From contig JANYES010000011.1 in the NCBI GenBank assembly GCA_025362975.1, forward strand, positions 65,581-129,580: a stretch of 64,000 nt of DNA, in the 5' to 3' direction. Below the pieces are notes generated by a model. That model was not told the DNA's origin. It made no database searches and worked only from the letters and a program-made list of their open reading frames with translations. The DNA comes from Alphaproteobacteria bacterium (GTDB lineage: Bacteria > Pseudomonadota > Alphaproteobacteria > Rickettsiales > SXRF01). Shown here piece by piece: positions 11,052 to 12,008 of this stretch. Positions within the stretch are counted from its first letter, which is position 1; each line of letters starts with the position of its first letter. The position numbers and the translations under genes were made by a program.

Positions 11052-12008
11052 TCAGGAAACGCCGGAATTTGATGAATCGCTCATGGACTTGCCGCGACTT
11101 AAGGGCTTGCGCTTCAGATGGGCGCTTGCGGGCTGGATGCCAGAGGGTTCAATGCGGAAACGGGCTTTTTGCTGCTCGGGCAGGCGCTCAAGGGCGCGGG
11201 TAGCGCCGCTGGGCGAGACGGCGATGGTAGTGCGGGTTTCACGGGCGGGGTCGCAGATGTCGATGGCTTTGAGAGTCAGGGCGGGCTGGGCTTTCACATG
11301 TTCGAGGATATGCGCGCCGAGCAGTTCCGAGGTGCCCTTGCGGCCGCCCCACATGGATACTTCCAGCGTCTGTCCGGCTTGGGCGAGCTGTTCTTGCATT
11401 TCGTCAAGCAAAGGGAGATCGGCCGTGCGGGCGACATGGGAGAGGCCTACGGACTGCGTGCGCGGGTTATGCATGATGACGGCGATACAGGGGCCGATGC
11501 CGGGGGTGTAGATGAATTCCTCTTTGTCGCATAAGGTGAGGATGCCCTTGCCTCTCTGGCTGACGAATCTGGAGTTCTGCGAGGTGACAGGCATGGCGTC
11601 GTCGCTGGCGAGCTTGGGCAGGTCGCGGATGGCGTTGGCGAGGGTTTGGAGTTTTTCACCGCGTATGCGGTCTTCCTGTTTGGCCATGTCGCGGTGGCGG
11701 TCTTCGATGGGGGGAAGCTGCATGGCGTCCATCAGGATGTTGCGCAGCTTGTCGAAACGCGGCGGCAGGCGGGAAAACGTGGCGAGCAACTCGTCGTCGC
11801 TAGCGGTGCCGTGTTCGACGGCGAAATACCCGCGCGAAGTGCCGATCAAATGGAAATGAGTTTTGTCGCCGTTAGATTCATAGGCGTGTGGGCCAACCAT
11901 GAAGCCGTCGGGGATTATTTCATGATGCATGCCCATCGCGTCGAGCATGCGATACATGCTGTCTTCGCTGATACCACCGCTGAGTTTGACCCTGTCGCTG
12001 CGTGCCAT
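11052..12008 (-). CDS. Unknown N-terminal domain fused to a CheD-like (Cys/His deamidase-like) C-terminal domain
   Basis: FIYTPGIGPCIAVIMHNPRTQSVGLSHVA parallels the CheD core (..TLGLGSCVAV....D....GmaHvMLP). The later VSMWGGRKG parallels CheD's ..IaGGA.mF. Start set at ATG 12008, because 12009-12110 is very AT-rich. ATG 12110 remains possible. Confidence 0.5.
   Translation of the reverse strand: MARSDRVKLSGGISEDSMYRMLDAMGMHHEIIPDGFMVGPHAYESNGDKTHFHLIGTSRGYFAVEHGTASDDELLATFSRLPPRFDKLRNILMDAMQLPPIEDRHRDMAKQEDRIRGEKLQTLANAIRDLPKLASDDAMPVTSQNSRFVSQRGKGILTLCDKEEFIYTPGIGPCIAVIMHNPRTQSVGLSHVARTADLPLLDEMQEQLAQAGQTLEVSMWGGRKGTSELLGAHILEHVKAQPALTLKAIDICDPARETRTTIAVSPSGATRALERLPEQQKARFRIEPSGIQPASAHLKRKPLSRGKSMSDSSNSGVS

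Follow-up and report, generated by a model that had tools for sequence, protein, structure and literature searches.

On the minus strand of a 64,000-nucleotide stretch of the contig JANYES010000011.1 (assembly GCA_025362975.1), the whole of which is referred to below as the window, lies a gene for a 318-residue protein that belongs, by its fold and its pattern of key residues, to the CNF1/YfiH-like superfamily of cysteine hydrolases and, within that superfamily, to the CheD/NTAN1 branch. Its nearest characterised relative, both by profile and by fold, is the eukaryotic amidase NTAN1, which is marginally ahead of CheD. The protein is itself neither a chemotaxis CheD, nor an NTAN1 orthologue, nor a true XopAK; it is a member of a rare and patchily distributed bacterial family that lies between NTAN1, CheD and the effector domain of XopAK and HopK1. 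We consider it likely that this protein is a two-domain cysteine amidohydrolase made in the cytoplasm, acting as a protein glutamine/asparagine deamidase on a substrate other than a chemoreceptor. The original prediction, which was made from the sequence alone, had suggested a deamidase with a non-chemoreceptor target, and the profile and fold matches, the catalytic residues and the absence of any chemotaxis context in the regions scanned all support it.

The superfamily is known, and the system is not new in kind. What is new is a bacterial family, rare and uncharacterised, that forms a bridge between NTAN1, CheD and XopAK and has an N-terminal domain of its own.

Sequence relationships, fold and active site

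Taken alone, the window protein matches a single Pfam family, N_Asn_amidohyd (PF14736; E 0.082, 12.5 bits against a gathering score of 24, profile positions 8-127 of 270), and a single NCBIfam model, XopAK (NF041406; E 0.061, 12.8 bits against a cutoff of 150, profile positions 51-118 of 173). The CheD models of Pfam and NCBIfam give no match to it even at E values up to 10, a phmmer search of the PDB finds no match, and in a word-seeded search of 5.8 billion proteins the sole match is the query itself. The family profile, run against this same set of 5.8 billion, matches at least two proteins. An exhaustive phmmer search of 1.84 billion representative proteins, at E ≤1e-3, returns 28 proteins with the query counted, that is 27 remote relatives, the nearest of which is 30% identical. 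The family alignment, and the profile made from it, comprise 27 sequences, the window protein included.

This profile brings out both of the characterised relatives. In an hmmsearch of the PDB it matches human NTAN1 (6A0E) with an E value of 1.9e-9 and Thermotoga maritima CheD (2F9Z chain C) with an E value of 7e-7, while hhalign pairs it with T. maritima CheD at a probability of 96.6% (E 5.9e-10) and with the NTAN1 segment at 96.2%. In the CheD alignment the window sequence YTPGIGPCIAV is set against VTLGLGSCVAV, GLSHVA against AMAHVM, and EVSMWGGRKG against EAKIAGGASM, reproducing the pairings with the Cys/His and GG regions of CheD that the original prediction had put forward. Among the 27 aligned family proteins, 25 match Pfam N_Asn_amidohyd, and relatives of the window protein pass its gathering score (P0008 with 44.5 bits, P0013 with 35.8, P0021 with 34.8, P0010 with 32 and P0023 with 25.9). 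The NCBIfam XopAK model is matched weakly by 19 (best E 4e-7). CheD models are matched by 14, the Pfam CheD model by only two of the 27 at E values up to 1 (best E 0.073).

The structural comparison leads to the same relatives. AlphaFold, given the family alignment as input, yields a confident model, with a predicted local distance difference test score (pLDDT) of 87.3 and a predicted template modelling score (pTM) of 0.81; the single-sequence model, with a pLDDT of 41, was not used. When the model is compared with the PDB by Foldseek, NTAN1 chains are found first (E 2e-8 to 4e-7) and CheD second (E 3e-7, template modelling score (TM) 0.59 normalised to CheD, root mean square deviation 3.8 Å over 155 columns), with YfiH/PgeF and CNF1 much weaker (E 3e-3 to 3e-2, TM ∼0.2). 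Profile and structure comparisons had been proposed as checks on the CheD-like assignment, and both of them, the first by hmmsearch and hhalign and the second by Foldseek on the AlphaFold model, recover CheD together with NTAN1. The similarity of CheD/NTAN1 type is far beyond chance, and the fold assignment is solid. The CheD-like core had originally been placed at 11193-11555, close to the limits of the domain that is found here (Table 1).

The active site residues, for which a Cys-His(-Thr) arrangement had been expected, align exactly with those of the characterised enzymes, and the family shows little or no variation at these positions. No exception to Cys174 or His191 occurs in the 27-sequence alignment, and conservation is at least 90% for Thr168, Gly170, Pro182, Gly221 and Gly222. 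The spacing of the triad in the alignments is identical to that in CheD and NTAN1, the Thr being located 6 residues before the Cys and the His 17 residues after it. For NTAN1, the identities and roles of the catalytic residues have been established by mutagenesis (PMC7022378). The family Cys column is superposed on NTAN1 Cys75, and the chain of the C75S mutant (6A0F), for which the only difference from wild type in the printed alignment is the Ser in place of Cys75, scores 30.9 bits compared with 40.6 bits for the wild type. This loss of ∼10 bits implies that much of the profile signal comes from the column of the aligned Cys.

Upstream of the catalytic domain, the original prediction had noted an N-terminal region of about 150 residues that it could not assign. 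The N-terminal ∼135 residues indeed have no match in Pfam or among PDB sequences, and a profile of this region likewise gives nothing meaningful against the PDB. The region is predicted to be well folded, with pLDDT values mostly above 90, and it is kept in 13 of the 27 aligned proteins (the window protein counted), with Pro82 and Leu98 invariant within two 'LP' motifs. This conservation implies that the N-terminal domain is an ancestral part of the family and not a one-off fusion. At the other end of the protein, the tail that had been described as basic and Ser-rich is both, and is disordered as well: residues 283-306 have pLDDT values under 50, and from residue 281 to the C-terminus the means of 10-residue blocks lie between 42 and 53. 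The last 30 residues carry a net charge of +4, against −4 for the remainder of the protein. The protein has no hydrophobic N-terminal signal and no Sec signal.

Table 1. Positions in the window of the gene, its domains and its predicted active site residues
Feature	Position	Strand	Description	Basis
Deamidase-like gene, complete	12008..11052	minus	318 codons and TGA stop (11054-11052)	ORF (open reading frame) list, sequence
AGGAGG, Shine-Dalgarno-like hexamer	12010..12015	minus		Read directly from sequence
N-terminal domain, family-specific	11604..12008	minus	Residues 1-135; β-sheet (strands 7-66) and helices 71-129; L81-P82 and L98-P99 motifs conserved	
CheD/NTAN1-like (CNF1/YfiH-fold) cysteine amidohydrolase domain	11184..11591	minus	Residues ∼140-275	Profile, hhalign, Foldseek
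Disordered, basic, Ser-rich C-terminal tail	11055..11183	minus	Residues 276-318 (∼43 residues)	pLDDT, charge
Thr168 codon	11505..11507	minus	Third triad residue, predicted to orient His; equivalent to CheD Thr21 and NTAN1 Ser69	At least 90% conserved in family
Cys174 codon (TGT)	11487..11489	minus	Predicted nucleophile; equivalent to CheD Cys27 and NTAN1 Cys75	Invariant, 27/27
His191 codon (CAT)	11436..11438	minus	Predicted general base; equivalent to CheD His44 and NTAN1 His92	Invariant, 27/27
Gly221-Gly222 codons, in 'LEVxLxGG' motif	11343..11348	minus	Equivalent to CheD 'AGGA' and NTAN1 'VGG'	At least 90% conserved in family

Comparison with characterised relatives

How far does the likeness to each of these relatives extend? 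For NTAN1, the best match by profile and by fold, it covers the α-β-β sandwich core, the positions and spacing of the triad (Ser69/Cys75/His92 in NTAN1, Thr168/Cys174/His191 in the window protein) and the 'LEVHLxGG' motif, which is common to both. The differences concern substrate recognition. In NTAN1, Thr73 and Thr74, together with Ser254, Thr255 and Glu260 from the C-terminal region, recognise the N-terminal Asn and its free α-amino group (PMC7022378). The two threonines, which bind the N-terminal Asn, are replaced in the window protein by Gly172 and Pro173 ('GIGPC' compared with 'DATTC'), and the added C-terminal region bearing the other three residues is absent, the chain being disordered after residue ∼275. 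The window protein has, in addition, an N-terminal domain that is unrelated to anything in NTAN1, and it is bacterial, whereas NTAN1 is eukaryotic. We conclude that it is not an NTAN1 orthologue, since it falls below the Pfam threshold (12.5 bits compared with 24), has Gly172-Pro173 in place of Thr73-Thr74, and lacks the C-terminal region on which NTAN1 specificity depends. Literature searches on PF14736, and on the accessions of the assembly and the sequencing runs, found nothing.

With CheD (2F9Z chain C; PF03975) the window protein shares the fold, a Thr/Cys/His triad in which Thr is the third member, the GxGxC loop and the GG motif. CheD is, however, a single-domain protein of ∼160 residues, whereas the window protein, with 318, has a folded and conserved 135-residue N-terminal domain and a 43-residue tail. 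The genomic settings differ too. The context scan extended over ∼81 kb: most ORFs of at least 120 residues in the window were compared with Pfam, a few others of this size were covered by precomputed Pfam matches only, as were the ∼17 kb flanks, and ORFs shorter than 120 residues were examined within 9-15 kb only. No CheA, CheW, CheY, CheR, CheB or CheC family, and no family of methyl-accepting chemotaxis proteins (MCPs), was found among the scanned ORFs. On independent contigs, whose GC contents range from 0.40 to 0.61, eight homologues are likewise isolated genes amid housekeeping neighbours, with no che or MCP gene beside any of them and no conserved partner gene. There is thus no chemotaxis neighbour at any of nine independent loci, which extends the observation, made originally for the surroundings of the window gene, that no che genes lie nearby. 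Because no CheD model matches it, because it is twice the length of CheD and has an extra conserved domain, and because it has no che context at any of the loci scanned, the window protein is not a member of the CheD family.

A third group of relatives is formed by XopAK, the C-terminal domain of HopK1, and RipBQ (NF041406), which are type III effectors of plant pathogens in which a catalytic domain of this type is predicted (PMC11116571). The window protein resembles them weakly (E 0.061) along the stretch that holds the catalytic Cys and His, and they too are stand-alone proteins of the superfamily, outside chemotaxis, that act in the cells of another organism. The resemblance goes little further: the window protein scores 12.8 bits where the model requires 150, the flanking domains are different, no gene of a type III secretion system (T3SS) is present in the ∼81 kb, and the source is an environmental alphaproteobacterial metagenome-assembled genome (MAG), not a plant pathogen. 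YfiH/PgeF and CNF1 share the superfold and the Cys-His chemistry, but their fold match is weak and there is no similarity at the level of sequence.

Among viral proteins, the best matches of the predicted structure (E 2e-8 to 4e-6 in BFVD) are to 'CheD-like' proteins of the giant viruses Moumouvirus, Tupanvirus, Fadolivirus and ChoanoV1. These place a CheD/NTAN1 fold in genomes that have no chemotaxis system, although their sequence identity to the window protein is only 15-19%. Some CheD-like proteins of giant viruses are packaged in mimivirus-type virions, according to a preprint (bioRxiv 10.1101/777854). Hokovirus is also among the giant viruses, of amoebae and choanoflagellates, that encode proteins of the CheD/NTAN1 fold.

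Proposed function and alternative explanations

By analogy with CheD and NTAN1, we infer a chemistry for the window protein in which His191, oriented by Thr168, would deprotonate Cys174, and the resulting thiolate would attack a Gln or Asn residue of a protein or peptide substrate at its side-chain carboxamide. Ammonia would leave with formation of a thioester, from which water would then release Glu or Asp. The Gly221-Gly222 loop would line the active site in the manner of the AGGA loop of CheD. The conserved N-terminal domain, residues 1-135, probably determines which substrate is taken or controls entry to the active site; we suggest this specificity role because, in NTAN1, it is likewise an appended region that dictates specificity. 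More speculatively, the disordered basic tail could be a signal for targeting, export or type IV secretion. Since the window protein is neither a CheD nor an NTAN1 orthologue, and belongs to a rare and separate family, its substrate is most likely a protein other than a chemoreceptor.

Two points weigh against the deamidase proposal. On its own, the window protein stays below every curated threshold (12.5 compared with 24 bits for N_Asn_amidohyd, and 12.8 compared with 150 for XopAK), and two members of the family have been named 'CheD' by the Joint Genome Institute (JGI), by automatic annotation. That name raises the possibility of an ordinary, if divergent, CheD that is unlinked from che genes located elsewhere in the genome, and that deamidates or demethylates the organism's own chemoreceptors. 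The CheD fold and the identically spaced Thr/Cys/His triad would fit such a role, as would the GxGxC loop, which in the window protein is closer to CheD than that of NTAN1 is. We nevertheless regard it as very improbable, given that the CheD models do not match the protein and are touched, in the case of Pfam CheD, by just two family members; that the protein is twice as long, with its extra N-terminal domain conserved in almost half of the family (13 of 27); that none of the nine loci has a che or MCP neighbour; and that 1.84 billion representatives contain only the 28 family proteins, query included, whereas CheD is common. The converse proposal starts from the top rank of NTAN1 in both profile and fold comparisons, and from the match of N_Asn_amidohyd to 25 of the 27 proteins, several of them above the gathering score. 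The protein would then be a bacterial N-terminal amidase, converting N-terminal Asn or Gln to Asp or Glu and so feeding the N-degron pathway of proteobacteria, through the Bpt leucyltransferase and ClpS/ClpAP, with the extra N-terminal domain perhaps capping the active site as the C-terminal region of NTAN1 does. If that were true, with the N-terminal domain taking the place of the NTAN1 cap, the protein would be a prokaryotic counterpart of NTAN1 and the first bacterial 'tertiary destabilising residue' enzyme. The replacement of Thr73/Thr74 by Gly172/Pro173 speaks against it, however, as does the Pfam match, which ends at profile position 127 of 270 and leaves no counterpart of the Ser254/Thr255/Glu260 region; the distribution of the family is also far too sparse for a housekeeping pathway of proteolysis, and we find this explanation hard to credit. 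Least of all do we favour an amidase with a non-protein substrate, for example one that edits peptidoglycan precursors as YfiH/PgeF does, or a binding protein that has lost its activity. The YfiH/PgeF fold matches (E 3e-3 to 2e-2) and the divergently transcribed neighbour, a large Wzy_C-like membrane protein of the envelope, could be read in this way, but the YfiH matches, with a TM of 0.2, fall short of the NTAN1 and CheD matches by about 5 orders of magnitude, the Wzy_C-like neighbour is not conserved at the other loci, and the full conservation of the triad argues against loss of activity.

A further possibility is a refinement of the deamidase proposal, not a departure from it. The protein may be an effector or toxin that is translocated out of the cell, with a type IV secretion system (T4SS) reading the basic tail as the most compatible route, and that deamidates a protein of a eukaryotic host or of a competitor cell. 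Such a role is plausible by analogy, but it is unsupported by any secretion, immunity or mobile context in the ∼81 kb, and we think it rather unlikely. The analogies are with XopAK, HopK1-C and RipBQ, whose model is matched weakly by 19 of the 27 proteins (best E 4e-7), with the toxins CNF1 and BLF1, which have the same fold, and with the giant-virus proteins that provide the best viral fold matches and the virions that package CheD-like proteins. The rarity and patchiness of the family, whose members are singletons among housekeeping genes on contigs of widely differing GC, would fit, as would a tail that is basic and disordered on an otherwise acidic protein without a Sec signal. The nearest genome by purB (88% identity) is labelled 'Rickettsiales bacterium', and its syntenic flank has no homologue of the gene. 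Against this, the scanned region contains no T3SS, T4SS or type VI secretion system (T6SS) gene, no immunity gene and no mobile-element hallmark. The GC content at third codon positions (GC3), 0.74, matches that of core genes and implies that the gene is not a recent import; the biosynthetic gene content suggests a metabolically complete and possibly free-living organism; in the predicted model the N-terminal chain is ordered from residue 7 onwards, a poor fit to a T3SS signal; and the positive charge of the tail is inconsistent across the family.

For the deamidase proposal as a whole, the interest lies in where the family stands. Protein deamidases of this fold are either regulators of signalling and proteolysis, such as CheD and NTAN1, or potent toxins and effectors, such as CNF1, BLF1 and probably XopAK and HopK1, and this locus links the two groups through an uncharacterised bacterial family. 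With the substrate identified, it would become clear how a CheD-type active site is turned to another target by a new accessory domain, and a new host-directed or regulatory deamidation could come to light. The fold assignment is itself useful for annotation, and the protein is a candidate for effector screens.

The gene, its neighbourhood and other family members

The start of the gene at 12008 is preceded by the Shine-Dalgarno-like hexamer AGGAGG at a distance of only 1 nt from the ATG, which is unusually close. A longer version, beginning at an upstream ATG at 12110 and adding 34 AT-rich codons, was considered and rejected: the start at 12008 is favoured because the N-termini of homologues align with the Met there and because gene callers on the source contig give 318 residues. 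A 100% identical protein, again called as 318 residues, is present on the NCBI MAG contig JAYUNH010000008.1 (GCA_043761865.1, 359 kb) and in Logan assemblies of two sequencing runs (SRR23617308 and SRR23617210), so that this is a real and reproducibly assembled gene. Its GC content is 0.60, and in this and its GC3 it resembles core genes such as gyrA and purB. It has no paralogue within the window.

On one side of the gene the order is pheST, purB, a HIT gene, tRNA-Met, a low-GC GIY-YIG-like ORF and a YcgN-family gene. Only 41 bp separate the last of these from the deamidase-like gene, downstream of which it lies on the same strand. An operon of the two was considered and rejected, the pairing being conserved at no other locus. 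The tRNA-Met (CAT) and, directly following it, a 189-residue ORF that has a weak GIY-YIG match and a GC content of 0.48 compared with 0.55 occupy window positions 9916-10584. Just before them, at 9476-9784 on the plus strand, a 102-residue ORF encodes a hydrophobic N-terminal segment followed by a low-complexity repeat rich in Ala, Lys and Asp (ADAKADAKV...). Gene calls on the source contig include this ORF, and it has no family match.

On the divergent side are a 683-residue Wzy_C-like membrane protein, two DUF5765 genes, a TetR gene and a second 683-residue paralogue. The two polytopic membrane proteins, encoded at 12155-14206 and 17365-19416 on the plus strand, are 39% identical, and one of them has a weak match to Wzy_C (O-antigen ligase). 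They bracket, at 14270-15760 and 16047-16664, two tandem DUF5765 paralogues (44% identical) and the TetR regulator. The whole block looks like a duplicated envelope-related module. Membership of the deamidase-like gene in a defence system was also considered and rejected, since PADLOC gives no match for it or its neighbours.

The source organism is an alphaproteobacterium. In a collection of genome contigs that excludes the window's own genome, the purB nearest to its own, with 88% identity, is found in a MAG labelled 'Rickettsiales bacterium'; that of another alphaproteobacterial MAG has 81%, and those of Rhizobiales and Sphingomonadales have ∼75-79%. The ∼81-kb region encodes glutamate synthase, pyruvate dehydrogenase, the iron-sulphur cluster (ISC) system, 1-deoxy-D-xylulose 5-phosphate (DXP) synthase and genes for arginine biosynthesis, a content without the hallmarks of a reduced obligate endosymbiont that looks like that of a metabolically complete, possibly free-living organism. 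A 243-residue protein encoded at 6996-7727 on the plus strand matches Pfam Surface_Ag_2 with 28 bits; this family of outer-membrane antigens is typical of Anaplasmataceae and Wolbachia, and it provides the sole hint of a Rickettsiales-type affiliation in a window that is otherwise rich in biosynthetic genes.

In the nearest genome by purB (L007), synteny with the window ends at purB-HIT, just before the window tRNA-Met; in L007 the tRNA-Met is on the opposite strand, and the 10-kb syntenic flank holds no homologue of the deamidase-like gene. The tRNA-Met/GIY-YIG region may be what is left of a mobile element, or may mark the breakpoint of a rearrangement. A genomic island at this tRNA would be consistent with the low GC content of the GIY-YIG-like ORF and with the end of synteny at purB-HIT, but the GC3 of the deamidase-like gene is that of a native gene, and the island was not used as evidence.

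Finally, two observations concern other members of the family. On two contigs, both of which carry a short member of 217 residues, an ORF of 139 residues (L093:7726-8145 and L094:80-499) lies 8 bp upstream of it. The idea that the ORF on L093 is a split-off N-terminal domain was rejected, since hhalign gives a probability of 0.5% and it is not homologous to the N-terminal domain of the window protein; it could be a partner or an immunity-like protein for this subgroup of short members. The other is a protein of 1858 residues, P0010 (L087:10001-15577, Logan SRR21361794, contig GC 0.40), which comprises nine tandem CheD/NTAN1-like domains joined by linkers rich in Ser and Thr and lies among housekeeping genes (the trp operon, lpxC-fabZ and efp). 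Five of its domains keep the T-x5-C-x16-H pattern, and the four copies interleaved with them have no Cys, giving an array in which active and degenerate domains alternate.

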